A program made the translations under genes and the position numbers. The notes under the pieces were generated by a model. It had not been told where the DNA came from, made no database searches, and saw nothing but the letters and a program-made list of their open reading frames with translations. From Candidatus Poribacteria bacterium (GTDB lineage: Bacteria > Poribacteria > WGA-4E > WGA-3G): a stretch of DNA of 64,000 nt. Shown here piece after piece: positions 4,629 to 61,439 of the stretch. The number at the start of each line of letters is the position of its first letter. Within the stretch, counting starts at the first letter, position 1. Where the stretch lies: the NCBI GenBank assembly GCA_963663765.2, contig CAXXUA010000005.1, positions 448,001 through 512,000 of the forward strand, written 5' to 3'.

Positions 4629-4750
4629 CAGGACTTACGCACCCAACGGTAGGCGCGCTTTGTAAGCGCGCTGGAAACCTAAAAAATGCTGAAAATTACA
4701 CCATTTTCGTCATAATTCTTCATCAAATCATGAAAACTGCGTAAGTCCTG
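4629..4750. mobile_element. MITE family A (122 bp, TIR CAGGACTTACGCA, 5-bp TSD TTTAT)
   Basis: Perfect 13-bp TIR and TTTAT on both flanks. Confidence 0.9.
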
Positions 4751-4806: not shown

Positions 4807-4964
4807 CAGGACTTACGCACCGAACGGTAGGCGGGGAATGCCTAAATGGCATTCATACCGTTGATTTGGTGCTTTGTAAGCGCGCTGGAAACCTAAAAAA
4901 TGCTGAAAATAACATCATTTTCGTCGTAATTCTTGACTAAAACATGAAAACTGCGTAAGTCCTG
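4807..4964. mobile_element. MITE family A with a 36-bp micro-element inserted at 4833-4868
   Basis: Same TIR, TSD AGTTC, length 158 = 122 + 36. Confidence 0.9.
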
Positions 4965-6343: not shown

Positions 6344-6359
6344 GGTATTAAGAACTTAT

Positions 6360-6481
6360 CAGGACTTACGCAAAAAAGGTAGGCGTGCTTTGTAAGCGCG
6401 CTGGAAACCCATAAAAACGCTGATAATTGCATCATTTTCAACATAATTTTTGATTAAATCAAGAAAACTGCGTAAGTTCTG
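6360..6481. mobile_element. MITE family A (TSD CTTAT)
   Basis: CAGGACTTACGCA...TGCGTAAGTTCTG, 122 bp, CTTAT on both flanks. Confidence 0.9.
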
Positions 6482-26762: not shown

Positions 26763-27127
26763 CAGGGTTATTCAGTTTTTGGTATTTTTGGCAAATATGT
26801 TAACATACTTTAATATGTTTGTTTGTATATTGTCGGATTGATATTACCTTAGTCTGAACCAGGATTTAAAAATCAAGAAATCAACGGTATGAATGCTATA
26901 TAGCATTCCCCGGGTATGAATGCCTTATGGCATTCCCCGGGATTTACAGATTTTCAGGATTAGAGTTTTATGCCGTTGATTTCGATTGAAAAGATAGACT
27001 TTCCCTCAGCAGAAACGCTTGATGCGGTAAATCTTGGAAATCCGTAAATCCTGCTAATCCTGGTTCAGACAATCGGGGTTACAAACCCCTCCCACAAGAA
27101 TCCATTTCGGACAATTGAATAACCCTG
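26763..27127. mobile_element. MITE family C (TIR CAGGGTTATTCA) containing nested repeats and micro-elements
   Basis: CAGGGTTATTCAG...TTGAATAACCCTG; internal TCTGAACCAGGATT/AATCCTGGTTCAGA pair; doubled micro-element at ~26870-26938. Confidence 0.7.
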
Positions 27128-27517
27128 GGGTACGACAGAAAGATTTGACAAGTAATTGTTAGTGGTAATCTGTAAATCCTGCTAATCCTGGTTCAGACTA
27201 TCGGGGTTACAAACCCCTCCCACAAGAGAAACCCTCCAACACAGTCGGGGTTGAAAACCCCTCACACAAAAGAAAATACCAACACTTTTTTCTTAAATTG
27301 ACGCTCATGGTGAGGTTTCCTAACCGCACTGACCATCGTAAAAAAAGATAGATCCAGTTAATTTGGTATCACCTCAGGCATCGGTGCTATCCGTGTAATC
27401 TTGTATCTGTATTTTGTTAGATTTGCAGATTGTATGAATTGACGAAAAATAACTGTTTGACTGCAAGCAACAATTCATGCAATAATAGCACATACAATAA
27501 GACAATCAAGAAATAAT

Positions 27518-30905: not shown

Positions 30906-31299
30906 CAGGGTTATTCAGTTTTAGGAGTTTTCTGTTATTGAGATTTACTGAAAGTTAATACCCAAATGAGGTTTCTTAACTGCACCTTATACATCAATTT
31001 TAGATTATTGAAACATGAACATCGCTCTTTAGTCCCGACAAATGCCACACGCGCATTTGGCGTTGATTTGGTAGGGACGATATGTTTATAGAAAACGAAT
31101 ACCCTCCCCAGATCTTTAGTCCCGTAGGGACGATATGTTTATTCTTCTATGCCGTTCCTACGGAACTCAAGAGAGTTAGATAACATTTTTCTATAAACAT
31201 ATCGTCTCTACGGGACTAAAGACACGGCCAAGATGGCAACACATAAAGTTAACGTCATAGCAAAAAATCATCAAAAATACCTAAAACTGAATATCCCTG
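30906..31299. mobile_element. MITE family C with 9-bp TSD, carrying TAGTCCCGTAGGGACG-type REP hairpins
   Basis: CATCAAAAT on both flanks (30897-30905 and 31300-31308). Confidence 0.85.
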
Positions 31300-31345: not shown

Positions 31346-31366
31346 CGCTTTTAAAAAGGAGTTAGC

Positions 31367-32971
31367 ATGAACTTATCATCCCATCCGAATATTCTTTGGC
31401 TTTCTATAGAAGACACCAGTCCCCGATTTGGTTGCTACGGTGATCCCATTGCGCGTACACCGAACATTGACCGACTTGCAGCTGGTGGCTGTCGGTTTCC
31501 AAATGCGTTTTGTACAGCAGGTGTATGTGCACCGAGTCGTTCTGCTATTATCACCGGTATGTATCAAACCTCTATCGGTACACACCACATGCGCACAACG
31601 CATAGAAACCGCAATACACCAAATATGCCGACACCCTATTCTGCTGTGTTACCCACTTATGTCAAAACCTTCACCGAATATCTACGAGCTGCAGGTTACT
31701 ATTGTACTAACAACAACAAGACCGATTATCAGTTCACACCGCCAATTACGGCTTGGGACGACAATAGCAATGAAGGACACTGGCGAAATCGTGCTGATGG
31801 ACAACCTTTCTTCTCAGTTTTTAATCCTACCGTTACACACGAAAGCGGTATGTGGGATCGGGATAATAGACCTTTGAAGACCAACCCAGATGACGTAGAA
31901 TTACCGCCGTATTTACCAGATACACCGAAAGCCCGCGCAGCGTTGGCTCGACATTATGATAACCTTGAGACTGCAGATGCGCGTGTAGGTAGATTATTGA
32001 CTCAATTGGAGGAAGACGGTCTCATGGATAATACGATCATTTTTCTCTGGAGCGATCACGGGGAAGGACTACCACGCGGTAAACGATGGCCCTATGACGC
32101 TGGCATTCGCATTCCTCTGATTGTGCGTTGGCACGGACATCTTGCCGAAGGAAGTGTAACGGATCAGTTGGTGAGTTTGATAGACCTTGGTCCCACCGTG
32201 CTATCATTGTGTGATGTGCAAGCACCAAAACACTTACAAGGACAACCCTTCTTGGGTCCCAATAAAATTGAACGCGAATATATATACGCAACGCGCGATA
32301 GATATGATGAATCTTATGATATGATGCGGGCTGTGCGCGATAAGAAGTATAAATACATCCGAAATTATTATCCTGAAAAGCCGTATCTGCTCTGGATTCC
32401 TTATCGCAATCGCCATCCTGTTATGCAAGAGATGTGGAGGCTTCATGCAGAAGGCAAGTTGGAAGGGGATCAATTGGTCATGTTCCAATCAAAACGTCCC
32501 GCGGAAGAACTCTATGATGTTGAAAACGACAAGTATGAACTCAATAACTTGGCTGAGGATGCTGCGCACGACACTGTGCTTGATCGGATGCGGAATGCTT
32601 TGACGCAATGGCAATCTGATTTCGGTGATATGGGAGAAATACCTGAAGATCAGATGGTTGCAAGATGGTACCCTGATGGCAAACAACCCAAGACCGCAGC
32701 ACCAATTTTTATTCCTATAAACGGATCTAATCCTGGAAGGGAACCTGCACAAGAAAATGGAGAATGGGAGGCACCACTGCTATTGCAACTGCACTGTTCT
32801 ACACAAGGCGCATCAATTGCCTATACATCAGAACAAGGAGAAGATGCACACTGGTTGTTATATTCCGAACCTTTGCGTATACCAAAAGGAAAGACCACCG
32901 TTCGCACAAAAGCAATTCGGATTGGGTATGAAGAAAGTGATGAGACGGTACTAACCCTCACAGTTTCTTGA
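31367..32971 (+). CDS. Sulfatase (Cys-type) with C-terminal FN3-associated/chitobiase-like domain
   Basis: CAPSRSAIITG formylglycine motif, SDHG. Confidence 0.93.
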   Translation: MNLSSHPNILWLSIEDTSPRFGCYGDPIARTPNIDRLAAGGCRFPNAFCTAGVCAPSRSAIITGMYQTSIGTHHMRTTHRNRNTPNMPTPYSAVLPTYVKTFTEYLRAAGYYCTNNNKTDYQFTPPITAWDDNSNEGHWRNRADGQPFFSVFNPTVTHESGMWDRDNRPLKTNPDDVELPPYLPDTPKARAALARHYDNLETADARVGRLLTQLEEDGLMDNTIIFLWSDHGEGLPRGKRWPYDAGIRIPLIVRWHGHLAEGSVTDQLVSLIDLGPTVLSLCDVQAPKHLQGQPFLGPNKIEREYIYATRDRYDESYDMMRAVRDKKYKYIRNYYPEKPYLLWIPYRNRHPVMQEMWRLHAEGKLEGDQLVMFQSKRPAEELYDVENDKYELNNLAEDAAHDTVLDRMRNALTQWQSDFGDMGEIPEDQMVARWYPDGKQPKTAAPIFIPINGSNPGREPAQENGEWEAPLLLQLHCSTQGASIAYTSEQGEDAHWLLYSEPLRIPKGKTTVRTKAIRIGYEESDETVLTLTVS

Positions 32972-36340: not shown

Positions 36341-36618
36341 CATTAGCGTCAATTTATAGTGAAATATACAATTAAGTTTACACGTTTTCTGTAGAAGCGA
36401 TCTCCGAATCGCGACTAAACGCCTTGATAGTCGGGAATCGGAGTTCCCTCCTACACCTGAAAGTGTAAAAATAATTCTAAAATCCACTATAAGAAAATAG
36501 AGTTGGCATTTTCTCTTGTGGGAGGGGTTTTCAACCCCGATTTGAGAGTAAATGAATATAAAATCGGGGTTGAAAACCCCTCCCACAAGAGGTCAAAACC
36601 CTTAAATTGACACTAATG
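36341..36618. mobile_element. MITE family E (TIR CATTAGCGTCAATTTA) with REP cargo
   Basis: CATTAGCGTCAATTTA...TAAATTGACACTAATG, with degenerate long flanking direct repeats. Confidence 0.75.
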
Positions 36619-36688
36619 GTTAGAAAACTTTTGACACTTGACTTAACTCACTGTTTGGAATACCGTCGCTTGCAAAAAGGGAGTTAGA

Positions 36689-38293
36689 ATGAACTTATCA
36701 TCCCGTCCGAATATTCTCTGGATTTCTATAGAAGATACCAGTCCGCGATTTGGTTGCTACGGTGATACGATGGCGCGTACACCGAACATTGACCGACTTG
36801 CTGCTGAAGGTTGTCGGTTTCCTAATGCGTTTTGTACCGCAGGTGTATGTGCGCCGAGTCGCTCCGCTATCATCACAGGTATGTATCAAACCTCTATCGG
36901 GGCACACCACATGCGGACAGGACTTAGAAACCAAAATACACCGCACAACTTACCACCGTATGCCACTGTTCCACCTCCTTATGTCAAAACATTTACAGAA
37001 TACCTAAGAAGTGCTGGTTATTATTGTACCAACAACAGCAAAACTGACTATCAGTTTACACCGCCTGTTACTGCCTGGGATGACAATGGTAGTAAAGGAC
37101 ATTGGCGAAATCGTGGGGAAGGACAACCCTTCTTTTCTGTTTTTAACCCAACCGTTACTCACGAAAGCGGAATGTGGGAACGGAAAGATCGTCCATTGAC
37201 TACAAATCCAGACGATGTACAGTTACCACCCTATCTGCCTGATACACCGAAAGCCAGACGGGCGTTGGCTCGCCAGTATGATAACCTTGCCACTGCCGAT
37301 GCACGTGTGGGTGAGTTAATAGATCAGTTGGAAGAGGATGGATTTGCTGAAAATACAATTGTCTTTCTCTGGAGTGATCACGGTGAAGGACTTCCAAGAG
37401 GGAAACGTTGGCTCTATGATGCGGGTATTCGAATTCCATTGATTGTCCGTTGGCACGGCGAACTACGTCCAGGGAGTAAAAGTGATCAATTGGTTAGTTT
37501 GATAGATCTTGGTCCAACGGTGTTGTCGTTATGTGATGTGCAAGCCCCCCAGCATTTACAAGGACAACCCTTTCTCGGTATACAAACAGTTAAACGTGAT
37601 TATATCTTTGCAACGCGCGACCGAATTGGTTCATCCTATGACATGATCCGTGCTGTCCGCGATAAAAAGTATAAATACATTAGAAATTACTATCCAGAAA
37701 AGCCATATCTGCTCTGGAGTCCTTATCGCAACCGGCACCCCGTGATGCAAGAGATGTGGAGACTTTATGCCGAAGATAAGTTAGAAGGCAATCAATTGGT
37801 CATGTTCCAAACACCGCGCCCCACCGAAGAACTTTACGATGTTGAAAATGACAAGTATGAACTCAATAACTTGGCTGAGGATGCTGCGCACGCCACTGTG
37901 CTTGAACGGCTGCGGAAAGCATTGACGCAATGGCAATCTGATTTCGGTGACATGGGAGAAATTCCTGAAGACCAAATGATTGAAAGATGGCACCCTGATG
38001 GCAAACAACCCAAGACAGCATCACCAATTTTTATTCCCATTAACGTCTCTAATCCTGGAAGGGAACCCGCACAAGAAAATGGAGAATGGGATGCACCGCT
38101 GCTATTGCAACTCCACTGTTCTACACAAGGGGCATCAATTGCTTATACAACAGAACAAGGAGAAGATGCACACTGGCTATTATATTCCGAACCTTTACGT
38201 ATACCAAAGGGTAAGACTGCCATTCGGACAAAAGCGATTCGAATTGGATATGAAGAAAGTGATGAGACTTCACTAACCCTCACAGTTTCCTGA
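36689..38293 (+). CDS. Sulfatase, close paralog of 31367-32971
   Basis: Same length (534 aa), CAPSR motif, highly similar sequence. Confidence 0.93.
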   Translation: MNLSSRPNILWISIEDTSPRFGCYGDTMARTPNIDRLAAEGCRFPNAFCTAGVCAPSRSAIITGMYQTSIGAHHMRTGLRNQNTPHNLPPYATVPPPYVKTFTEYLRSAGYYCTNNSKTDYQFTPPVTAWDDNGSKGHWRNRGEGQPFFSVFNPTVTHESGMWERKDRPLTTNPDDVQLPPYLPDTPKARRALARQYDNLATADARVGELIDQLEEDGFAENTIVFLWSDHGEGLPRGKRWLYDAGIRIPLIVRWHGELRPGSKSDQLVSLIDLGPTVLSLCDVQAPQHLQGQPFLGIQTVKRDYIFATRDRIGSSYDMIRAVRDKKYKYIRNYYPEKPYLLWSPYRNRHPVMQEMWRLYAEDKLEGNQLVMFQTPRPTEELYDVENDKYELNNLAEDAAHATVLERLRKALTQWQSDFGDMGEIPEDQMIERWHPDGKQPKTASPIFIPINVSNPGREPAQENGEWDAPLLLQLHCSTQGASIAYTTEQGEDAHWLLYSEPLRIPKGKTAIRTKAIRIGYEESDETSLTLTVS

Positions 38294-42652: not shown

Positions 42653-43936
42653 ATGGATTTAATACGTCAACCACCACGGAGACCTTCAAACCTGGGTGTA
42701 GCAGGAATTGTCGGTGCAGCACGCATGACAGACAAAGCACGCGCACACAACGAGGAGACACTCGGAGAATTTGTTTACGGAAGATATTCAGGTTTGGATC
42801 GACGGATTTTAGAATTTCTGGGAATTACAGCAGACGACTTTGCTGCTGCAGCTGATGAACACGATGATGCTAAACTCAGTGCCTGGATGCTGGAAAAGGG
42901 AAAAAAGACGGACGCAGAGATTGCTGCATTCAACAAATCGGAATTGGATAGACTACCTACTGACAAGAAACATCAACAACTTCTGGATGAACGACTCGCG
43001 AAGTTTGCACCAGATCGTACAGATATAAAAACAATACTACAATCCATTGAACTGGATGACTATGGTTGTTTCTGGCAGGTGGATCTCACTGCACGTCCGC
43101 CACGCAGTGCACGGTCAAGAGATGTTGCAGGTATCTGTGGTGTAGCACGCATGGCAGACAAAGCACGTGCGGAACGCGCCGGAAAAATCGGCGACTATAA
43201 ATTTGGTGATATTTCTGGACAAGATGTTCGCATATTGAAGTTCCTCGGTGTCTCTGCAGAAGATTTTCAAGAAGCTGCAGTTAACAACCCAAATGATATT
43301 GAACTTAGCGAATGGGTACAGAAAAACTGTAATAAAATACAAAATGAAATTGACGCATACAATCATGCTATGGTCAATCGCAGTCCCGATGAAACCACAC
43401 GAGAACGGTTTGAGTCGCGCCGAAACGACGTTGATCCTACAAGAACAGACATCACAACATGGGTTGCACTACAAGACTTGGATGATGAGTTGAGTTTTGG
43501 CATTGTTGACCTCAACCGACGCGCACCACGCAGCCCCTACAATACTGATGTCTATGGTATGGTGCAGCTTGCGCGATTGGTAGACAAAGGCAGAGCTCAT
43601 ATTGGCAATACGTTGGGTTCCTATTTTTACGGAGAGGAATCAGGGATTGATAGGATGACGCTTGGATTTTTAGGAGTATCCCCCACTGACTTTACAGAAG
43701 CGTTGAAGACATTACCAACAGATATTGACGTTGAAAGGTGGTTGCAGGAAAATTATCCAAAAAGTGAAGCAGACATCAATGTATTTAATGAAAAGATGAT
43801 ACATGCATCCCCTGAAACTGAACGGCATAAGGTGTTATGGGAAATGATGCTGAAAAAACTTGACGCTGACCCTTCGGTGATCAATACATGGTTTGCTATG
43901 TTGGACCTTGATGATGAAAAGACGTTTGCAATATAG
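42653..43936 (+). CDS. Triple DUF5069-like domain protein
   Basis: Three repeats of PR.....G....AR..DK.RA...G...G..SG.D...L.FLG. Confidence 0.8.
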   Translation: MDLIRQPPRRPSNLGVAGIVGAARMTDKARAHNEETLGEFVYGRYSGLDRRILEFLGITADDFAAAADEHDDAKLSAWMLEKGKKTDAEIAAFNKSELDRLPTDKKHQQLLDERLAKFAPDRTDIKTILQSIELDDYGCFWQVDLTARPPRSARSRDVAGICGVARMADKARAERAGKIGDYKFGDISGQDVRILKFLGVSAEDFQEAAVNNPNDIELSEWVQKNCNKIQNEIDAYNHAMVNRSPDETTRERFESRRNDVDPTRTDITTWVALQDLDDELSFGIVDLNRRAPRSPYNTDVYGMVQLARLVDKGRAHIGNTLGSYFYGEESGIDRMTLGFLGVSPTDFTEALKTLPTDIDVERWLQENYPKSEADINVFNEKMIHASPETERHKVLWEMMLKKLDADPSVINTWFAMLDLDDEKTFAI

Positions 43937-44009
43937 TTTACTATAGATGGTTTTCGTACTATGATAGATGTGACACGTTGATTGAGTCTTGTGATATGGG
44001 AGATAGGAA

Positions 44010-44432
44010 ATGAAGCAGTATTCAAGGTTAATTTCACTGGTAGGTGGTGTCATCTCTTTTTTTAGTTTTGCATTGCCCTGGGTGGAAGATTCCTCAGGAT
44101 TTAAACTCGCAAACATCTCTTCAAGCAACAGTAATGTAGGTTTTGTTGTGATAGTATTCATAGTTACTTTGATTATAATTGTCACGAGTTTAATACTGAA
44201 TAGACAAACATTTTTGAAAGTATTAATATCAAGAATAATAGTGATGATTTGTTGTGGTATTGGTCTATTCTGTCTTTCTTATCTGTTTTCCGGGCAAGTC
44301 AAAATCTATGGTAATTATGTTCGTGATATACAATATGGTGCGTATCTAAATACGATTGGATTTATCATTTCAATCGTAGGTATATGGAATCATCCGACAA
44401 CGAAAGATATACCACACTCCGAAGAAGAATAG
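44010..44432 (+). CDS. Hypothetical membrane protein
   Basis: ~4 TM helices, ALPW motif. Confidence 0.65.
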   Translation: MKQYSRLISLVGGVISFFSFALPWVEDSSGFKLANISSSNSNVGFVVIVFIVTLIIIVTSLILNRQTFLKVLISRIIVMICCGIGLFCLSYLFSGQVKIYGNYVRDIQYGAYLNTIGFIISIVGIWNHPTTKDIPHSEEE

Positions 44433-44469
44433 GGAAATGGAAACAACAATCGCTAACATTGAATATTAT

Positions 44470-44684
44470 CAGGACTTACGCACCCAACGGTAGGCGGGGA
44501 ATGCCAAAACGGCATTCATACCCGACGAATGCCATAGGCGCATTCGGCGTTGATTTGGGGGAATGCCTAAATGGCATTCATACCGTTGATTTCTTGATTT
44601 GGCGCCGGAAACCTAAAAAATGCTGAAAATTACATCGTTTTCGTCTTAATTCTTGATTGGATCATGAAAACTGCGTAAGTCCTG
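44470..44684. mobile_element. MITE family A (TSD ATTAT) with three nested micro-elements
   Basis: Same TIR; interior 44496-44601 is made of stacked GAATGC/GCATTC hairpin units. Confidence 0.88.
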
Positions 44685-44878
44685 ATTATTCAACATGAAG
44701 GTTTATGGTAGGTTTTAGAATTATTAGTTACATGATACGACTGTTTTCAATAGAAGTGACCTCCCAGACGCGACCGAGATGCTTTTGCAATAGAAGAAAA
44801 TACTCCAATAAACAATAATGGGAGGTACCATCAAGAAACAATGTTATGTCTGAAATGGTATAATATTTTTGTGGACTT

Positions 44879-45313
44879 ATGGAGAAACAAACAATGTATT
44901 TATATCACGGAAGCAAACAGTTGTTTCCCAAATTGAAAAAACGCAAAGCTCAAGCACCACCAGGGAGACCTCCCGAAGAAGCCTTAGAGGCAATCTATTT
45001 AACACCTGATTTTTTCTTTGCATTGGCTTGCGCAGCAAGACCCCCCGGAGTTTCTAATATAGATCTGACAAAACGAATCATTTGCTTTGAAAACCCTGAT
45101 CAGTTTGAGCCAAACGAGACGATTTACATCTATTTTGTAGATTCAACAAAAATACCAGAGGATAAGAAAATTGAAATTGATCCATGGCAGGTTGCTGTAA
45201 CTGAGAATGAGATAACTCCAGATAAAGTTGAAACCTATAAGTCTGGTGACTTGCTGAAACACTATCGCGTTACCGATAAATGGATTGACTCAGATGAAGG
45301 CAATTCAGGTTAA
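44879..45313 (+). CDS. Hypothetical protein, possibly ADP-ribosyltransferase-like fold
   Basis: LYHGS...AIYLTPD...A spacing resembles Arr-like enzymes. Confidence 0.55.
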   Translation: MEKQTMYLYHGSKQLFPKLKKRKAQAPPGRPPEEALEAIYLTPDFFFALACAARPPGVSNIDLTKRIICFENPDQFEPNETIYIYFVDSTKIPEDKKIEIDPWQVAVTENEITPDKVETYKSGDLLKHYRVTDKWIDSDEGNSG

Positions 45314-45348
45314 TAGAACACCTGCTACATAACAAAGGAGATTACATA

Positions 45349-46293
45349 ATGTTTTTTGCAACTAACAATGGTATCTATACAATTGAAGATAATGGGAATA
45401 AAGAACCTACACAAGTTTATGAAGGCACAGACCATCAGACAATGGTTTCATTGTCAAAGGGTCACACCGTAGCGGTAGCACTATCAGGTGGAACACTACT
45501 CATCTTGTCAGAGAAAGGTGAGAAATGCATACCAACAGGTATAGAGGATCCAATCGCTTCGTTGCTCGTTGTTCGTGAGGACCCGATAACACTACTTATC
45601 GGAACGGATGAGGGTGCTTATGTCTATCGGCTCGTTGATGAAGAAGGTCCTGCTGAACGGGTTAAGTCTTTTGATGAATTAGAATGTCGGAAAGATTGGT
45701 ATACGCCATGGGGCGGTCCACCAGCTGTCCGGACTCTTGCCAAAACCCAAGACGGATTTTGTTATGCAGATATCCACGTAGGAAGTATCATGCGTTCCAA
45801 CGATGAAGGTATTTCTTGGGAACCTGTCACACCGGACCTAAATAAAGATGTTCATCAGGTTGCTACGTGTCCTGCGGATGATCATCAAGTGTTTGCGAAC
45901 ACTGCTAACGGTGTCTATGTCAGTAAAGATCGAGGGCATTCCTGGGTGAATCGGCTTGAAGGGTTGCCGGTTCGCTACGGCACCTCTATTGCAGTAGATC
46001 CTGCCGACCCAAACTTGATGATCGCCACAGTCCAAAGAGGACCACGAGGCGGTGGTGCTTGGCTTTGTCGTTCAGACAATGGTGGTACGACGTGGACTCA
46101 ACTTAACGAAGATCTCAAAGAATCAGCAGATCGGATTCGCACAGGTAGTATTGCGTTTACATCTGATGGAACAGCTTGGGCTGTAATCGGAAAAACGCTT
46201 TATATCGGTAAGGATCGAGCCACAGATTGGAGTCCGTTCTGGACAGCACCCAATGTTGATAGCGAATACCCTATTCAAACCCTTGCTGGATAG
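45349..46293 (+). CDS. BNR/Asp-box beta-propeller protein
   Basis: RSNDEGISW, SKDRGHSW and RSDNGGTTW Asp-boxes. Confidence 0.85.
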   Translation: MFFATNNGIYTIEDNGNKEPTQVYEGTDHQTMVSLSKGHTVAVALSGGTLLILSEKGEKCIPTGIEDPIASLLVVREDPITLLIGTDEGAYVYRLVDEEGPAERVKSFDELECRKDWYTPWGGPPAVRTLAKTQDGFCYADIHVGSIMRSNDEGISWEPVTPDLNKDVHQVATCPADDHQVFANTANGVYVSKDRGHSWVNRLEGLPVRYGTSIAVDPADPNLMIATVQRGPRGGGAWLCRSDNGGTTWTQLNEDLKESADRIRTGSIAFTSDGTAWAVIGKTLYIGKDRATDWSPFWTAPNVDSEYPIQTLAG

Positions 46294-46470
46294 TAGTGCT
46301 TAGTCAAGTGTTTATTGACGGATCTAAAAAGTAGTCGGGAATCGGAGTTCCCTCCTACAATACACACAATACACAAGACTTCTGTAGGAGCGATCTCCGA
46401 ATCTCGACCTACAATAGTATGTTGACTCAACAGTAGTTTGTTGCAAGAGTAATTAGAGGAGTCTGTAGTT

Positions 46471-46836
46471 ATGAATGTATTAGGTATTGACTTTACTTTC
46501 TTTGCTGTGAGTGATATGCAGAGATCACTCACCTTTTATCGTGATACACTTGGCGTTCCACTGGCAGGTTTAGCACATGAAGGTAAATGGGCAGAATTTC
46601 AAATAAATCCAGGAACTTTAGCGTTAGGAGAAGGCGATTTCTTCACGGAACCCGGTGGTGGAATGGTCGCATTTGCTGTTGGGGACGCCAAAGCTGCTGT
46701 GGAAGAATTAGAACAAGCGGGGATTAAGCTTCAAACCCCATTGGGTGAATCTGCTGTATGTTTTTGGGCGGTTGTTGAAGACCCCGATGGAAATCGTGTT
46801 ATCATTCATCAGCGAAAGGATAAGACAGTTGGGTAG
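46471..46836 (+). CDS. VOC/glyoxalase family protein
   Basis: VSDMQRSLTFYRDTLG...DPDGN. Confidence 0.9.
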   Translation: MNVLGIDFTFFAVSDMQRSLTFYRDTLGVPLAGLAHEGKWAEFQINPGTLALGEGDFFTEPGGGMVAFAVGDAKAAVEELEQAGIKLQTPLGESAVCFWAVVEDPDGNRVIIHQRKDKTVG

Positions 46837-47300
46837 ATAACAATTTACGATCATAACGCGTTGTGCTAAATAACTATATGTTAATCATTGTTTCACATAA
46901 GCATGACGTTTTGCAGGTGTCCTTCATAGTTTGAAACGATCTTCAGTCCCGACAAATGCCATACACGCATTTGGCGTTGATTTGGTAGGGACGATATGTT
47001 TATAGAAAACGTCATAGTACATCCTCTTTAGTCCCGACAAATGCCATACGGGGAATGCCAAAAGGCATTCATACCGTTGATTTGGCGCATTTGGCGTTGA
47101 TTTGGTAGGGACGATATGTGTGCATTATAAACCTAATATATGTAAAAACTTTGAATACAATGGGTTAACTGGCACAAGTCGTGATCATAGATCATAGTTT
47201 TATCTAAACGAATGATAATATAAAGGTTACAATTCATAATAATTGTGGTATAATATAGCATGAGTTGGTATTGTAGAACTAATTTTGTGAGGTCGCGTAG

Positions 47301-47576
47301 ATGAACTACCGAGACATTATTACCATTGAACCTGGCAAACGTGGAGGGAAACCTTGTATTCGTGGTATGCGAATTACTGTTTACGATGTCTTAGACTATC
47401 TCGCATCAGGCATGACAGTAGTCGAAATTCTTGATGATTTTCCCTATTTAACCGAAACTGACATCCGGGCATGCCTTGCCTATGCAGCAGATCGCGAAAA
47501 AGCACAGATGGTTATTTACACAAATGAAACTTCTATTCGACCAGAATCTATCGCCTCAACTGGTGAAACGACTTGA
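47301..47576 (+). CDS. DUF433 family antitoxin
   Basis: GKRGGKPCIRGMRITVYDVL..LASG..EILDDFPYL...DIRACLAYA. Confidence 0.92.
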   Translation: MNYRDIITIEPGKRGGKPCIRGMRITVYDVLDYLASGMTVVEILDDFPYLTETDIRACLAYAADREKAQMVIYTNETSIRPESIASTGETT

Positions 47577-47855
47577 GGATTTGTTCCTAATTCTACCCAC
47601 GCACAGAATATTGGGTTAGATACCGCAGCGGATTCCGAATTGTGGAACTATGCAAGCGATAGCGACTATCTCATTGTGTCGAAGGATACAGATTTCGGTG
47701 ATAAAAGTGCAATTCATGGACATCCACCTAAAGTAATTTGGATTAAGCGAGGAAATTGTTCCACAAGAACAGTTGAAAAGATATTGACAGATCACTACTC
47801 GGATATACAATCCTTTGCAAGAAATCCAGATCAAGGATTACTGATCCTGTTATAA
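47524..47855 (+). pseudogene. DUF5615 PIN-like toxin, frameshifted
   Basis: MKLLFDQNLSPQLVKRLEDLF, then a 1-nt shift near 47586 to ..NSTHAQNIGL...IVSKDTDF...PPKVIWI..GN. Confidence 0.8.
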
Positions 47856-47921
47856 TTTCACTTTACCTTAAACCCCGCACTAATGTAATACTGTTGAAAA
47901 TACAAGGAAATTTACGTACTT

Positions 47922-48419
47922 ATGAAAACATTTTCAAGACTCAATCTTATATTTCTTATTTTTATTTTAGTAATCGGTATATCCAGTTGTGAACGGATAC
48001 CAAAAGTAATAGATTCTCAAACAGAAACACCACTGGCGGATCGCGACCATGTTTGGCCAGTTGATCAAAACGGTATTGAGGTGCCTATCCCAGGAACATG
48101 GGTATTAGTATCACATACGCACGAAAATTCGACATCTACAATTGGTGAAAATTTCACCTTACCTGCAGATCCCCAACCTATTCTTCAAACATCGGATGGC
48201 ACATATACAGATGATGAAGGTATACTCTGGACGAAAATAAGGCTTATAACCGCTGAAGGCGATAGGTGGCAGTTCCTTGAACGTGTAGATACAAGTGTTT
48301 CACCTCATCAACTCTACGCTGTTGTTACAGTAGATGAAAATGGAATCCCAATTCTTGAATATGGTGAATATCCATTTGATTTACCGAGGTACAACGTGCA
48401 AATTTGGGAGAAACAGTGA
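47922..48419 (+). CDS. Hypothetical lipoprotein
   Basis: Lipobox ISSC. Confidence 0.7.
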   Translation: MKTFSRLNLIFLIFILVIGISSCERIPKVIDSQTETPLADRDHVWPVDQNGIEVPIPGTWVLVSHTHENSTSTIGENFTLPADPQPILQTSDGTYTDDEGILWTKIRLITAEGDRWQFLERVDTSVSPHQLYAVVTVDENGIPILEYGEYPFDLPRYNVQIWEKQ

Positions 48420-48448
48420 GGAATCACATATAAATCAGGCGCATTCCC

Positions 48449-49684
48449 ATGCTATTCCGTTTTTCACTCTACGGCTTCCTAAAAAATCAACGCTACTATG
48501 ATCCGTTTATTGTATTAGCATTCCGTGAGAAAGGTCTATCCTTTTTACAAATCGGTCTCATTTTCGGATTTAGAGAGGTATGTACGAATATCTTTGAAAT
48601 TCCTTCTGGTGCTGTAGCAGATCTTTATGGTCGACGTCGTGCCATGATATTTTCGTTTTGTGCTTATATTGCCTCTTTCGCTACATTTGCATTAAGCAAT
48701 TCACTCCTGATGCTTTTTGGTGCTATGTTCTTCTTTGGCTTAGGCGATGCGTTTCGAACCGGTACACACAAGGCGATGATTTTCGACTGGTTACGTTTGC
48801 AGGGTAGATCAGATGAGAAGACAAAAATATACGGCTTTACACGTTCATGGTCACAGATGGGGTCTGCGGTTTCTGTTCTCATTGCAGGCACATTAGTTTT
48901 TCTCCTTGGCAATTACACAGCTATTTTCTGGTATTCAATTATTCCATACCTAATAAACATCATTAATTTCTTTGGTTATCCGAAGGAACTTGATGGCGAT
49001 AAACAGAGTGAGTTTTCACTCAAAGCGGTTGCAAGTTTGTTCTGGAGTGCGATCAAACAATCAGTGCAATTCCCTCCTTTACGCCGTTTAGTTTTTGAGG
49101 GTATGGGTTTTGAAGGTATGTATAAAGCAAGTAAAGATTATCTACAACCGGTACTTGAAAAGGCTGCCACCGTATTACCAATTCTGTTAACAGTTGATAG
49201 TTCAAAACGCACTGCGGTTCTCGTTACGGTTATCTATTTTCCACTCTATTTTTTATCATCATTTGCCTCTCGGAATTCCCATAGAGTTTCGGATTGGCGA
49301 GGTGGAGATGAAGGTGCTGCGCAAGTGATGTGGTGGACAAATTTATTATTTTTTGCCCTGTTGATTCCAGCTTTTTATTACAACTTACACCCTGCGATAA
49401 TCGCTCTATTCGTCATTTTAGCAATACTTCAGAATTTTTGGAGACCCGGTTTGATTAGTCGTTTCAATGTACAGTCTTCACCTGAGATGAGCGCGACAAT
49501 TTTATCCATAGAAGGACAATCGAAATCTTTAGCGACAGTAATCCTTGCTCCATTGCTCGGATGGTTAGTAGACAATGCTGGGAACTTTTACCCAGTAGGT
49601 ATTGTTGGTACTTGCATTGCAGTGGTAATTCTTATAGCATATCATAGTCAATTAGAAGTGAAACCCGAATATAGTGCGGAGTAG
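48449..49684 (+). CDS. MFS transporter
   Basis: EIPSGAVADLYGRRR motif, ~12 TM. Confidence 0.9.
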   Translation: MLFRFSLYGFLKNQRYYDPFIVLAFREKGLSFLQIGLIFGFREVCTNIFEIPSGAVADLYGRRRAMIFSFCAYIASFATFALSNSLLMLFGAMFFFGLGDAFRTGTHKAMIFDWLRLQGRSDEKTKIYGFTRSWSQMGSAVSVLIAGTLVFLLGNYTAIFWYSIIPYLINIINFFGYPKELDGDKQSEFSLKAVASLFWSAIKQSVQFPPLRRLVFEGMGFEGMYKASKDYLQPVLEKAATVLPILLTVDSSKRTAVLVTVIYFPLYFLSSFASRNSHRVSDWRGGDEGAAQVMWWTNLLFFALLIPAFYYNLHPAIIALFVILAILQNFWRPGLISRFNVQSSPEMSATILSIEGQSKSLATVILAPLLGWLVDNAGNFYPVGIVGTCIAVVILIAYHSQLEVKPEYSAE

Positions 49685-51380: not shown

Positions 51381-51522
51381 TACTTCCGCCTCAAAAGATA
51401 ATACCCAGAAGGAAACATCGGAATGCCGATTATTCATTTTTCTAAATGAAAACGACGGGGCAATAATTGCAATCGCCACGCTTGTTCTTGCAGGTATAAC
51501 CCTTTGGTACGTCATTGAGACA

Positions 51523-51978
51523 ATGCGAATGAGACGAGTTACCCTGGAAATGCTACGTGTTTCCAACACGCCAGAAATTCAAGTGCCACTATATAGAATC
51601 CGGAGTTGGAGAGAACATACACTCAACCTCAATATACAAAACATAGGGACAGGTTTTGCCTATAATGTAAATTTTGATGGTAATCTTTCCACTGTAGAAA
51701 TCAGTTATAATACGCTTGCTGATAATGAAATAATGAAAAACGGCATAAACTGTTTAGGTCCTGGAAAGCGGTATCAAATACCGCTATTTCGGCAATATGA
51801 TCAGCATGATTTGCCAACAACCCTTCTTAACATGGATGTTACTTATATGGATTCAGCAAATACCCCTCATGATAAAACATTCCAACTTGATTTTACAAAT
51901 GTTGAAGGTTATACGCAAATAGGGGATCCCTCTCTTTATAGTATTGCTGAATCGTTGAGACGCATTGCAAATAGGTAA
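51523..51978 (+). CDS. Hypothetical protein; an upstream in-frame TM segment lacks a start, so possibly degenerate
   Basis: Frame is open from ~51310 and includes AIIAIATLVLAGITLWYV; NIGTGFAYNV motif. Confidence 0.5.
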   Translation: MRMRRVTLEMLRVSNTPEIQVPLYRIRSWREHTLNLNIQNIGTGFAYNVNFDGNLSTVEISYNTLADNEIMKNGINCLGPGKRYQIPLFRQYDQHDLPTTLLNMDVTYMDSANTPHDKTFQLDFTNVEGYTQIGDPSLYSIAESLRRIANR

Positions 51979-53185
51979 AGTTGATAATCATATGGGTCGG
52001 TGTGGCGGTGTTTGTGTGCTGTGCTGGAGGCTTGCGCTATGTGCCACAGGCTTCGCTGCGTTCGCTCCGCTACGCTTCGGGCGGTGATATTCGCTACGCT
52101 CCACCGTCCACCCTTCGCTGCTCCACTTCACTTTACTACGCCAGAGGCACAGGCGGGGAATGCCTAAATGGCATTCATACCGTTGATTTGGCGGTGCCTG
52201 TTACGGGCTTGTGTGCGAGAATACGCACCGCGCCCTTGCACCAGCAGGTACACAGTCCAGTGATGCATTTGCTTTGCCGCGCCCTGACTGTAGCCCTGCT
52301 GCCATTCTCATTGAACAGAGATTTTCCCGTATAAAAAACTTTTCTTGCTCCCCGTCTTTCGCCGCAATTTCTCAATTTTACTTACAATCCAAAATCGCAC
52401 GGAATATAAGCAGCACTGCAGTTTATCCGAATTCTATAAATATATATGTCCAGATGAAAAGTGTAAGCGAATCCCAATTCACCGAAGCCGTGTATAGGAA
52501 CTATCACGGCGAGCCGTTGACGTCTATTGCCAAAGATTTTGGTATCGGACAATCCACTTTGTCGCAACTCAAACCCGCCGCGCGGACAACTGGGAACGGA
52601 TACATCAGCAGATCGTTGCGACTGAAATCGTGCGTCTGGTTTTCGCAAACACTCCCCACCACTTCCTGTCGAGAGGACGATCCCCCAATAAACTCGATAT
52701 AACGTGAAAAAAAGTTGTTAACAGAAAAATACGAAAGTTGTATAATTCCAATATCAACTAAGATAAGCCCGAAAAATACGGGCACCTCATCTCAAAAACA
52801 AATATTTAGGTCTTAGCTTAGTCGCTGGGGTGCCGCACATTTTTTGATTAAATGGGAAATCCAGCGACTAAGCTATTGGTGTATCCACTCATGTGCAAGT
52901 GGTGTTTTATTATATTTTACGGGTATTTTCGGGTGTGAGATCAGGTGTAGTGTTCTGACTATTCTTGAAAGCACCTTATCGTTAATACTAATCTATAATC
53001 AATATCCATAATAGGAGGAAGGAAAACATGAAATTTCAATTTATGGCAAAAAACATTGACAGTTTGTTTATTGATGTCTGCTGTCGTCAGTTGAATAACA
53101 ATCACCGCCGTGTCAAAAGTCCCTCTGTCCGAACGCGGAGAGATGCGGGACACAAGCGGATAATTACCATATAGGAGATAGACTC

Positions 53186-54968: not shown

Positions 54969-55612
54969 CATAGGTGTCAATTTAAGAACAGGAATTACGC
55001 ACCCAACGGTAGGCGTGCTTTGTAAGCGCACCCCCCAACTGCAGGCGTGCTTTGTAAGCGCGCTCCCTAACTGCAGGCGTGCTTTGTAAGCGCACCCCAA
55101 TGGTAGGCGTGCTTTGTAAGCGCACCCCCTAACAGCACTCCCCTGCAGGCGTGCTTTGTAAGCGCACCCCCCAACTGCAGACGTGCTTTGTAAGCGCACC
55201 CCCCAACTGCAGGCGTGCTTTGTAAGCGCGCACCCCAACTGCAGGCGTGCTTTGTAAGCGCACCCCAACTGCAGGCGTGCTTTGTAAGCGCACCCCGATG
55301 GTAGGCGTGCTTTGTAAGCGCACCCCGATGGTAGGCGTGCTTTGTAAGCGCACCCCAACTGCAGGCGTGCTTTGTAAGCGCACCCAGATGGTAGGCGTGC
55401 TTTGTAAGCGCGCTGGCACATCACGTCTCAACAGCGCGCTTACAAAGCACGCCTACCGTGTGAGAAAATTTATTACCGAATTTAATAAATTAATCATCAT
55501 AAAGTTTGATGCTCAAATTGTCCAAATAATTATATGTTTTAGTATAATCGGGGTTGAAAACCCCTCCCACAAGAGAAAATACCAACACTTTTTTCTTAAA
55601 TTGACGCTTATG
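54969..55612. mobile_element. MITE family E with 19-bp flanking direct repeat, containing the REP array
   Basis: TIR CATAGGTGTCAATTTAAG / CTTAAATTGACGCTTATG; GTGTGTAAAATTTTTGCTC at 54950-54968 and 55613-55631. Confidence 0.82.
55008..55460. repeat. Tandem array of 13 ~30-bp REP-like units plus one inverted unit
   Basis: GGCGTGCTTTGTAAGCGC repeated with C-run + AACTGCA or (A/G)ATGGTA linkers; inverted copy at ~55435-55458. Confidence 0.92.
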
Positions 55613-56104
55613 GTGTGTAAAATTTTTGCTCAAACTACTCATTCTTCATTGTAGGGCGGGGCTCTGTGCCCGCCCCAACTGATTAAATGAGAGATTGCGG
55701 GGCACAGAACCCTAATGAGTTTTGACGTTCAAGTTGTGTATTCGTAGGGGCGTGGTTGCCACGCCCAATCTACGCAAACTTAAAAACCAAACGGGTTGGG
55801 GAACCCAACCCCTACGAATTCAACTACCGATTTGATTGTCAAACTTCATTAGGTGTCAATATAAGGAAATATTGTTAATATCAACCATACGCTTCAGTCC
55901 CGTAGGGACGATATGTTTATAGAAATACATATCCTCACGTCTTTTTTAGTCCCGGAGGGACGATATGTTTAACCTTCTATGTCGTTCCTACGGAACTCAA
56001 GAGAGGGGTGATCGTCTTTTTATAAACATTGCGTCCCTACGGGACTAAAGAGAACAAAAGTGTGTACCTCTGTGCAAAATCTTTACACACCCTTTACCTA
56101 TGAC

Positions 56105-56294
56105 CAGGGTGATTCAGTTTTACCCATTTTACCTGTTTCTTGAGAAAATCGCGACTGGCAAATCAAGAAATCAACGGTATGAATGCGCGTATAGCATTCC
56201 CCGGGTACGAATGCCTTTTGGCATTCCACGGGTCGCCCCTACCGCGGAGTTTCTTTTTCAAAAAATCCAAAAATTAGGAAACTGAATAACCCTG
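56105..56294. mobile_element. MITE family C with a doubled micro-element
   Basis: CAGGGTGATTCAGTTT...AAACTGAATAACCCTG; flanks ACCTATGAC / ATCTATGAC. Confidence 0.78.
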
Positions 56295-56440
56295 AATCTA
56301 TGACAGAGGCATTCAATTGTCCGAATTGACTATTGTGGGAGGGGTTTGTAACCCCGATTTCAGAGACAAGCATAACAAATCGGGGTTACAAATCCCTCCT
56401 ACAAAGATGTATTGTGACAATTGAATGTCTCTGAACCTAA

Positions 56441-61245: not shown

Positions 61246-61439
61246 AGGTTTACCTTTATGTATATTTAACGACCTGTTTTAGTTAACTTAATGTTTGTAT
61301 TATTATCACACCTATTAAGCTTGTGTTATTAACATATCGTCCCTACCAAATCAACGCCAAATGCGCGTTTGGCATTTGGCGGGACTAAAGATAGGGTATT
61401 CAACGTTTTTCTATAAAAATATCGTCCCTACGGGACTAA

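Follow-up and report, generated by a model that had tools for sequence, protein, structure and literature searches.

Dispersed repeat units of 34–36 nt were characterised in a 64-kb stretch of DNA (the window; positions 448001–512000 of contig C5) from the assembly of a Candidatus Poribacteria bacterium (G000; 6.35 Mb, 15 contigs, 41% GC, 97.8% complete). Each unit follows one plan, a variable 7–9-bp hairpin with the constant tail GTTGATTT(G) on its 3′ side, and the units probably represent very small non-autonomous insertion modules that form a lineage-restricted family in Poribacteria. They stand within other repeats, and homologous sites in paralogous repeats were found empty, filled and doubly filled. 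In one copy (4807–4964, 158 nt) of MITE1, a MITE (miniature inverted-repeat transposable element), a unit at 4833–4868 is inserted at GGTAGGC^G (carets mark insertion points). This copy differs from the empty copy at 4629–4750 only by base substitutions and by 36 nt between GGTAGGC and G(C/T)GCTTTGTAAGCGC, and the clean insert that a preliminary description of the window had reported for the 158-nt copy relative to 122-nt copies was thereby confirmed.

Unit architecture

Four sequence types were distinguished. Type A has the consensus GGGGAATGC-(6–7 nt)-GCATTCATACC-GTTGATTTG and type B the consensus GACAAATGC-CAYACGC-GCATTTGGC-GTTGATTTG; type D, with about 19 copies among the matches listed, reads GACAGAAGC-CAAACGC-GCTTCTGAC-GTTGATTTG and is located at the 3′ foot of a different hairpin (GGGGTTTTCAACCCC^GATTT). 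The stems of types B (CAAATGC/GCATTTG), C (CGAATGC/GCATTCG) and D (CAGAAGC/GCTTCTG) differ from one another by paired changes, and among type A stems the double variant AATAC/GTATT was found 18 times, versus 9 and 7 times for the one-sided intermediates. Because the stem changes are compensated and the tail is constant, hairpin shape and tail sequence are the conserved features. Folded as single-stranded DNA, type A gives a 7-bp hairpin (−7.0 kcal/mol, z −2.66), behind which the linker and the tail remain unpaired over 13–15 nt. A regular expression for hairpin plus tail recovered 473 units from G000, which supplies the genome-wide count that the preliminary description had called for; the linker is CATACC in 376 of these, TGGC in 66 and CGGC in 12. 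On the opposite strand of type A, GTAT is found ahead of the stem, and types B to D have nothing similar.

The units start with GGGG and end with GATTTG. They carry no terminal inverted repeats (TIRs), and filled and empty sites differ by the unit alone, so that there is no target-site duplication (TSD). The lack of TIRs and of a clear TSD, together with the hairpin and tail shared by types A and B, had been noted before and held throughout. Tail-less hairpin units were considered as autonomous copies and rejected: the 42 cases were mostly palindromic type B units on the opposite strand or truncated copies.

Copies and empty targets in the window

All of the coordinates in the preliminary description hold a copy. 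Three of the listed copies (44496–44601, 26870–26938 and 56159–56229) do contain the modules, but they proved to be composites and not single copies. The sister type reported inside hairpins corresponds to type B and was recovered within AGTCCC hairpins at 31037–31070, 46951–46984 and 61347–61380 (minus strand), and the empty versions of this hairpin were placed exactly at 31114–31142 and 55892–55920. The copies and targets are as follows:

4629–4750, plus strand: empty MITE1 copy, 122 nt, with the intact target GGTAGGCG/CGCTTTGTAAGCGC (insertion point between)
4833–4868, plus strand: type A unit; hairpin GGGGAATGCC-TAAAT-GGCATTC, linker ATACC, tail GTTGATTTG(G)
26870–26938, minus strand: two-hairpin, two-tail composite; hairpins at 26913–26938 and 26886–26911, tails at 26870–26885
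31037–31070, plus strand: type B unit, GACAAATGC-CACACGC-GCATTTGGC-GTTGATTTG, in hairpin AGTCCC^GTAGGGAC
31114–31142, plus strand: empty hairpin target CTTTAGTCCCGTAGGGACGATATG (repeat family D9)
44496–44601, plus strand: composite in site 1 of MITE1 copy 44470–44684; three hairpin units (A, C, A) and two tails
46951–46984, plus strand: type B unit in an AGTCCC^GTAGGGAC hairpin, the first hairpin of the ~330-nt MITE-2 copy 46853–47183
47036–47104, plus strand: type B unit in the second MITE-2 hairpin; its loop CCATAC^GCGC carries a type A unit at 47050–47084 (plus strand)
52155–52190, plus strand: type A unit in the loop of the local hairpin AGGCAC...GTGCCT
54989–55416, plus strand: tandem array of about 14 units of 30–32 nt (..CCCCAACTGCAGGCGTGCTTTGTAAGCGC..), each with an empty preferred target G(T/C)AGGC^GTGCTTTGTAAGCGC
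55892–55920, plus strand: empty hairpin target (D9); a second empty one at 55944–55972
56159–56229, minus strand: composite with two hairpins and two tails, lodged in a REP1-like hairpin loop (GGTAGGGGCGACC...GCCAGTCGCGA)
61347–61380, minus strand: type B unit with a perfect 9-bp stem GCCAAATGC/GCATTTGGC, in an AGTCCC^GTAGGGAC hairpin

The composite at 44496–44601 is made up of a type A hairpin (44496–44522), a type C unit (44524–44557) and a second type A hairpin (44558–44584), followed at 44585–44600 by the tails GTTGATTT and CTTGATTT. The composite at 26870–26938 (minus strand) follows AAATCCC and folds with a z value of −6.4. The unit at 52155–52190 has a unique hairpin as its host, each flank being single-copy in the genome, and is probably intergenic, between open reading frames (ORFs) ending at 51978 and starting at 52211. 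In the array at 54989–55416 every repeat is a hairpin resembling repetitive extragenic palindromic (REP) sequences, and comparable arrays elsewhere carry inserted modules.

Host repeats

MITE1 (122 nt, TIRs CAGGACTTACGCA...TGCGTAAGTCCTG) is present in 272 genome copies, four of them in the window (4629–4750, 4807–4964, 6359–6481 and 44470–44684), and contains an internal REP-like unit, GGTAGGC-GCGCTT-TGT-AAGCGC. The flanks of copy 4807–4964 suggest, by eye, a 5-bp duplication (AGTTC). The second family, MITE-2 (46853–47183 in the window), is about 330 nt long with the ends ACGAGTTGTGC...GCACAAGTCGT, is built from a variable number of hairpin units of about 85 nt and occurs in about 30 copies.

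REP1 has the structure GGTAGGAGCGACC-TCCC-GGTCGC, that is, GGTAGGAGCGACCTCC(C/T)GGTCGC, and often forms inverted doublets overlapping by 2 nt, in the manner of REP doublets forming hairpins (REPINs). Exact copies number 489 in G000, 197 in G016, 4 in G015, 3 in G014 and 1 in G002, and the other 35 genomes of the genus have none. A REP1-like copy lies in the window at approximately 56130–56250 (minus strand). A further palindromic repeat, ATCGGGGTT-GAAA/ACAA-AACCCC TCCCACAAGA, was found at 27035–27312, 36508–36579, 55548–55615 and 56325–56396; elsewhere in the genome, this ATCGGGGTT/TCCCACAAGA family is the host of type D units.

Insertion sites and orientation

The statement that the units mostly insert between C and G was upheld on the genome scale: C directly precedes 423 of the 473 units. 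GTTGATTT is followed by G in 295 units (GG 279, GC 8, GA 5, GT 3) and by C in 164 (CT 146, from stacked tails; CG 15, CA 2, CC 1). The left flanks were classified for 505 type A hairpins of G000. The largest class, G(T/C)AG(G/A)C^ (196 of 505), comprises MITE1 site 1, tandem arrays with 30–32-nt units (e.g., 54989–55416) and a site 2 variant; 102 hairpins stand immediately behind another type A hairpin, 60 in the loop CCATAC^GCGC of type B-like units and 33 immediately behind another tail. Smaller classes are AATCCC^ (18), GAGACC^ (16), the REP1 loop (16) and GTAAGC^, which is MITE1 site 2 (7), and the remaining 57 are mainly mutated forms of the named classes. Among 66 simple type B copies, by comparison, AGTCCC precedes the unit exactly in 63 and in variant form in 2, and a single copy lies elsewhere. 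Confinement to one site of one parent repeat, which the preliminary description had set against mobility, was therefore not seen for type A (at least nine context classes and the unique hairpin) but nearly holds for type B.

The hosts comprise two MITE families, at least three classes of GTAG-tagged REPs, the units' own hairpin, loop and hairpin–tail joint, and the unique hairpin, and the units occupy the loop or the foot of the host hairpins. The units invade at least three REP classes of the type associated with REP-associated tyrosine transposases (RAYTs), in most cases separating the GTAG tag from the palindrome or occupying the loop. Other Poribacteria species carry type A in further species-specific palindromes with base-identical unit ends (71 units, 80 loci), for example GCTGGCGAGGC(unit)CTTCCTAACCTCGCC, GTAGGAGGGAACTCC(unit)GGATTCCCGAC, GAGTTCC(unit)GGTAGGAAC and GGTAGGC(unit)GGCGTTTTGTAAACGCGCC. 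The ratio of the two orientations relative to the host is 253:1 at G(T/C)AGGC sites, 133:1 in a small hairpin repeat, 66:2 in type B loops and 24:4 in REP1 loops; because orientation is essentially fixed, the target must be more than a palindromic CpG. Inspection by eye for guide–target pairing of the IS608 kind, between linker and target flanks, gave only a match at five of six positions (CATACC against the complement of GGTAGG), in one target class. Nested junctions and several host junctions yield the palindrome CCCGGG (ACC-C-GGGG), as at 26905–26915 (minus strand), and in folds the CCCGGG of nested junctions lengthens the lower stem of the outer hairpin.

Evidence for repeated insertion and for inheritance with the hosts

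The lengths of the 272 MITE1 copies fall mainly into classes of 121–123 nt (133 copies) and 157–159 nt (35 copies); additional length classes would fit the gain of 8-, 27- and 35-nt modules. Annotators should bear in mind that length classes of MITEs and REPs in these metagenome-assembled genomes arise from such modules. Of 251 copies that were parsed, 88 are filled at site 1 and 42 at site 2. When fill state was mapped onto a tree of 245 MITE1 backbones, site 1 required 68 changes, compared with a mean of 68.9 (58–77) after shuffling. In 25 simple copies filled at site 1, the mean pairwise difference falls from 0.104 in the backbones, through 0.072 in the 35 host bases flanking the site, to 0.024 in the inserts, whose diversity is thus roughly a quarter of that of the host backbones.

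Graded states were also observed in the first hairpin of MITE-2 (30 copies), which is empty in 10, contains B in 7, B+A in 8 plus 2 damaged copies and B+A+A in 2, and is unanchored in 1. REP1 loops carry 24 units in forward and 4 in reverse orientation, with at least six different unit loops. REP1 is taken to be young because it is abundant in two genomes only, and the units in its loops therefore point to late insertion. The small hairpin is filled in 76 of 469 copies, with 51 changes on a flank tree as compared with 70.4 (64–76) after shuffling; this tree test is weak evidence because the flanks are only partly homologous. Hairpins and tails often differ in number (one to two in 52 clusters, three to two in some), which we infer to result from slippage, and one deletion between two tails is visible among MITE-2 copies. 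As a whole, the fill pattern agrees with insertion that was late and recurrent, with hitch-hiking and slippage in addition.

Several observations weigh against an interpretation of the units as insertion modules. Some junctions are not clean: at the REP1 loop, the empty site CT/CCCG becomes CC(unit)GCCG when filled, and the repeat TCTGTAGGAGCGATC, when filled, reads TCTGTAGGC(unit)CGATC. The unit-in-unit junction is always CATACC-C-(unit)-C-TTGATTT, other species included, whereas plain insertion at C^G would predict CATACC-(unit)G-GTTGATTT, and the uninterrupted variant CATACCCTTGATTT occurs only four times in the genome. Unclean junctions fit with rare founding events followed by copying. 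MITE1 site 2 is clustered on the tree (23 changes versus 39.2 after shuffling, range 35–42), so that the tree has signal, and site 2 has been partly inherited with the MITE, whereas site 1 has not; the trees were built with FastTree from only about 122 aligned bases. The low diversity of the inserts could also stem from purifying selection or gene conversion. Certain hairpin loops are largely specific to one host: CAATAG is private to one repeat (11 of 13 copies), 40 of the 60 copies in B loops have CTTAATG, and 10 of the 18 after AATCCC have CATAAG. The private loops and the clustering of site 2 together imply that much of the copy number is due to hitch-hiking. None of the searches made connected an enzyme with the unit.

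Moreover, a filled and empty pair at an orthologous locus was not obtained for the unit in the relatives compared or in public sequencing runs. The relatives are 71–88% identical in the matches listed, and their loci corresponding to 43500–48500 lack the host MITEs, the MITE-2 copy 46853–47183 being among those absent at the syntenic loci. For the unique site at 52155, no orthologue was found in the genus, and the single partial match to 51400–52900 stops short of the site. In the public runs that contain the region (n=6), contigs end at repeats, and skips of 35, 63 and 110 nt have sides of at most 28 nt; because of these short sides, the skips are attributed to other repeat copies. A contig from one run (X1), which represents a near-identical strain, joins 46848 directly to 47183. 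The whole MITE-2 copy is consequently absent from that strain, and the join is uninformative on the unit.

Alternatively, the units may be largely passive: a few ancient insertions would have been multiplied by host amplification, gene conversion and slippage, which would also have produced the scattered fill states, with no dedicated activity at present. Junctions that are constant within a host and odd in some hosts, host-private loops, clustering on host trees at MITE1 site 2 and in the small hairpin, the slippage products and the tail–tail deletion all agree with this explanation, as does the retention of roughly 60–210 copies in genomes that lack a Y1 transposase (see below). Nevertheless, we regard it as unlikely. 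Across species, dozens of unrelated hosts hold units whose ends vary by no more than 1 nt, which would require many precise founding events; units are present in REP1, a repeat expanded in two genomes only; the filling of MITE1 site 1 is unrelated to the tree, and the inserts are less diverse than their hosts; and the insert in the unique hairpin at 52155–52190 has no homologous partner for conversion.

Genome-wide number and taxonomic range

The tail 10-mer (at most one mismatch) occurs 20 times in the window as compared with 7.0 expected, a number attained in 0 of 100 shuffles. In the 6.35-Mb genome, the type A 19-mer GCATTCATACCGTTGATTT is present 406 times (reversed control 0) and the type B 17-mer 126 times. 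In a search with the 19-mer restricted to one genome per species (at least 92 stretches), 78 of the 80 loci listed were from Candidatus or uncultured Poribacteria and 2 from an “uncultured bacterium”.

The distribution within the phylum was determined in a sample of 176 genomes, with type A scored at up to two mismatches. All 39 other genomes of the genus contain type A (3–462 copies; G000 has 566), as do 58 of 65 genomes of the sister genus (0–209 copies), and the remaining 71 genomes have at most 2 matches each (control 0–1). The tail 11-mer is enriched in 40 of 40 genus genomes (13–519, reversed control 0–10) and near background in the sister genus; genome G003 has almost no type A yet contains the tail 11-mer 42 times (control 4). 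No match to the unit was obtained in IMG/VR or in phage records, and plasmid records gave a single 25-nt chance match.

A non-mobile structural motif under selection, such as a protein-binding or RNA element in mosaic clusters like those of the bacterial interspersed mosaic elements (BIMEs) of enterobacteria, would account for the compensated hairpin, the constant tail and the rarity of type A copies within crude ORF calls (38 of 398, about 90% being outside). We consider this very improbable: the units interrupt other hairpins and each other at single phosphodiester positions, their orientation bears no relation to the direction of flanking genes (125 to 112), and copy number varies from 0–3 to 566 within one genus. 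No Rfam family matches the unit, and two sub-threshold miRNA matches lie elsewhere.

Search for the moving enzyme

The preliminary description had assigned the movement of the units to an HUH/Y1 transposase and had suggested a search for a Y1 or RAYT gene flanked by the same stem and tail. In this hypothesis the units are moved in trans by a RAYT or an IS200/IS605 TnpA that recognises the single-stranded hairpin plus tail and cuts on either side, at the foot of the hairpin and behind the tail. The absence of TIRs and TSDs, a subterminal hairpin and orientation-locked insertion are all in its favour. The preferred targets, moreover, are GTAG-tagged REPs, which are RAYT substrates (the commonest site, GGTAGGC^G-stem, separates tag and palindrome and belongs to the G(T/C)AG(G/A)C class with 196 of 505 flanks), and RAYT genes flanked by such REPs occur in the genus.

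The assignment was nonetheless supported by none of the tests run (flanks, ends and co-occurrence). Six Y1_Tnp matches were detected in G000, namely three copies of a 1.75-kb IS200/IS605 element (tnpA plus a 370-aa ORF), a fragment thereof, a RAYT-like gene and a truncated match at a contig end, and none of these loci has the unit at its ends. Neither the tail nor a type A arm was found within 1.5 kb of them, except that the truncated match has a unit, in a MITE-like setting, at a distance of about 600 nt, and within 4 kb only ordinary repeat copies are present. The resident IS200/IS605 ends consist of CTGCC-TAAA-GGCAG and a second hairpin, both unrelated to the unit. The RAYT-like gene of G000 (C4:621661; 225 aa, with HxH and Y motifs) is flanked by CATTCTGTAGGAGGGAACTCCGATTCCCGA arrays, those of G017 (163-aa product) and G002 by GGTAGGTTCGGTTTGTAACCGAACC and that of G016 by REP1; thus, among four loci examined (36 genomes have Y1), each RAYT-like gene is flanked by GTAG-tagged REPs of its own and none by the unit. 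GGTAGGTTCGGTTTGTAACCGAACC has the design tag-stem-TGTAA-stem, the same as that of the MITE1 target GGTAGGC^GCGCTTTGTAAGCGC, and GTTGATTT occurs around the G017 and G002 genes at chance level only.

Y1 matches are present in 36 of the 40 genus genomes, which by itself agrees with a Y1 mover. The four genomes without a Y1 match nevertheless carry type A (G010 156, G024 211, G001 157 and G042 60 copies); G024 consists of 1 contig and G001 of 4 contigs, and G042 is 73% complete. Across the 40 genomes, the number of Y1 matches is uncorrelated with that of type A copies (Spearman 0.013, p 0.93).

Chromosome-scale polarity was evaluated from pairs of copies 20–50 kb apart, which are not independent of one another. 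The same orientation was observed in 790 of 1054 pairs for type A, 872 of 1183 for REP1 and 106 of 160 for MITE1. A polarity common to the unit, REP1, MITE1 and the small hairpin extends over hundreds of kilobases (contigs C3, C4, C5 and C6), with switch points at 0.9–1.0 Mb in C4, 0.3 Mb in C3 and 0.25 Mb in C6; relative to the REP1 polarity, 212 type A copies are oriented with and 47 against. Polarity of all repeat families over at least 100 kb is what replication-coupled transposition of single strands would give. However, because the unit is locked to the orientation of its host, its polarity may be inherited from the host, and fill differs only weakly by host orientation, both at MITE1 site 1 (42 of 119 in the majority orientation versus 6 of 31, p 0.13) and in the small hairpin (59 of 263 versus 18 of 121, p 0.10). 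GC skew was too patchy for leading and lagging strands to be assigned and does not mirror the repeat polarity, which has no relation to gene direction either; type A is biased 86 to 140 against the G-rich strand, and REP1 is biased too.

Movement by a Y1 enzyme is therefore viewed as possible but doubtful. The HUH idea is weakened and not refuted, since insertion is structure-directed, orientation-locked and TSD-free and prefers REPs; an HUH-type enzyme acting on single-stranded DNA is tentatively retained as the most likely class of mover.

Other enzyme classes gave no lead. No match to IS110 was found in G000, and none to the Y2_Tnp/IS91 models (PF04986, NF033538) in G000 or in any control genome, so that the latter searches are uninformative. 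An RNA intermediate with reverse transcription, as was reportedly proposed for the small dispersed repeats (SDRs) of cyanobacteria, would suit the small size and the hairpin and nothing further; RVT_1 gave no match in G000, whereas the same search was positive in 3 of 14 control genomes, and this route is hardly credible. The genes between neighbouring units encode WD40 lipoproteins, oxidoreductase-like proteins and others, none of them recombinase-like as judged by reading, with no family search. At least eight paralogous WD40-repeat lipoprotein-like ORFs (approximately 360–380 aa, named by reading the sequences) have repeat clusters between them, at 34–50 kb of C6, 1.160 Mb of C4, 105 kb of C7 and 313 kb of C15.

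Comparison with known repeats

SDR1–8 of Nostocaceae reportedly measure 21–27 nt, share a hairpin with compensatory changes and have a mover that is not known, and they are said to lie within their own copies, within MITEs and within heptamer repeats (Elhai et al. 2008). The Poribacteria unit likewise is tiny and bound to one lineage and sits at precise positions within other repeats and within copies of itself. It differs from SDRs in its phylum, its length of 34–36 nt, its constant 8–9-nt tail and its targets, which are REP and MITE hairpins after C; HIP1 is not enriched in G000 (58 copies). SDRs are very short dispersed repeats regarded as mobile (PMC4390886, PMC5861425, PMC3116915) and are restricted to one lineage (PMC5861425). 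Assignment of the unit to the Nostocaceae SDRs themselves was rejected on the basis of lineage (78 of the 80 loci listed are from Poribacteria), the comparison with SDR1–8 being one of architecture.

REPs are imperfect palindromes of 20–40 nt with a conserved tag at one end, present in hundreds of extragenic, often clustered copies and in lineage-specific families (PMC3733652, PMC3116915, PMC2817692). The unit is similar in being a short imperfect palindrome with hundreds of mostly extragenic copies. Its tag, however, is GTTGATTT on the 3′ side of the hairpin instead of GTAG or CGTC, and it inserts into REPs and forms direct nested or tandem stacks, whereas REP1 forms inverted doublets. True REPs and RAYT genes coexist with the unit in these genomes, and none of the four RAYT loci is flanked by it.

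Elements of the IS200/IS605 family and their gene-less derivatives, the palindrome-associated transposable elements (PATEs), lack TIRs and TSDs, have subterminal hairpins, insert in one orientation and display an orientation bias at the chromosome scale. The unit shares the absence of TIRs and TSDs, a hairpin and a single orientation to the target, and its regional polarity, which the host repeats have as well, may be comparable. Unlike these elements, it possesses a single hairpin in place of left-end and right-end hairpins, and the resident IS ends are unrelated to it. Instead of a 4–5-nt target, only a single C is conserved on its 5′ side, the left flanks ending in GGC, AGC, CCC, TAC or TTG, and it is also present in four genomes that have no Y1 match. 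IS91 elements and Helitrons combine a 3′ subterminal hairpin with a short conserved tail, insert at a dinucleotide and have neither TIRs nor TSDs, and in these respects the unit may resemble them; at 35 nt, however, it has no 5′ end separate from the hairpin. From MITEs of the DDE type it is set apart by the absence of TIRs and of a TSD.

Literature searches by motif and for Poribacteria together with repeats returned no description of these repeats among the 12–15 best-ranked of many papers, which leaves their absence from the literature unproven. In our judgement, the SDRs of Nostocaceae are the closest precedent, with a phylum, unit and targets different from those found here.

Proposed mechanism

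The module would be excised or copied precisely at C^G...GATTT(G)^, and a structure-specific enzyme provided in trans would place it into hairpins that are single-stranded or extruded. Further copies may then arise by new insertions, by riding on host MITEs and REPs and by slippage between the 27-nt hairpin units and 8-nt tail units (CTTGATTT) of composites. Nested events would be rare, their products subsequently being moved or copied as wholes.

A more speculative proposal, and a somewhat unlikely one, is that the units form a mobile DNA class of their own that hyperparasitises REPs and MITEs. One hairpin and an 8-nt tail would be its whole requirement in cis, and the enzyme integrating it into extruded or single-stranded hairpins would not be a recognisable Y1, Y2, IS110 or reverse transcriptase. 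They would then rank among the smallest self-defined mobile elements and would offer an independent, tractable second case for the SDR puzzle, with about 100 genomes and 0 to approximately 570 copies.

The means by which the smallest dispersed repeats of bacteria (REPs and SDRs) move are still largely unsettled. The Poribacteria units provide a tractable case with sharp ends, a clear target logic and graded empty, single and double states, together with a natural panel of two genera and 104 other genomes with none to hundreds of copies. They show one kind of repeat living as a parasite of others, here in sponge symbionts, which are noted for genomes heavily loaded with mobile DNA.

Further repeats in the window

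Two larger repeats were also recorded in the window. A 101-nt unit is present in three tandem copies at 974–1276 (96–100% identical), and the segments 31353–31931 and 36675–37253 contain direct repeats of 268 and 300 nt that are 5322 nt apart and 79–89% identical.

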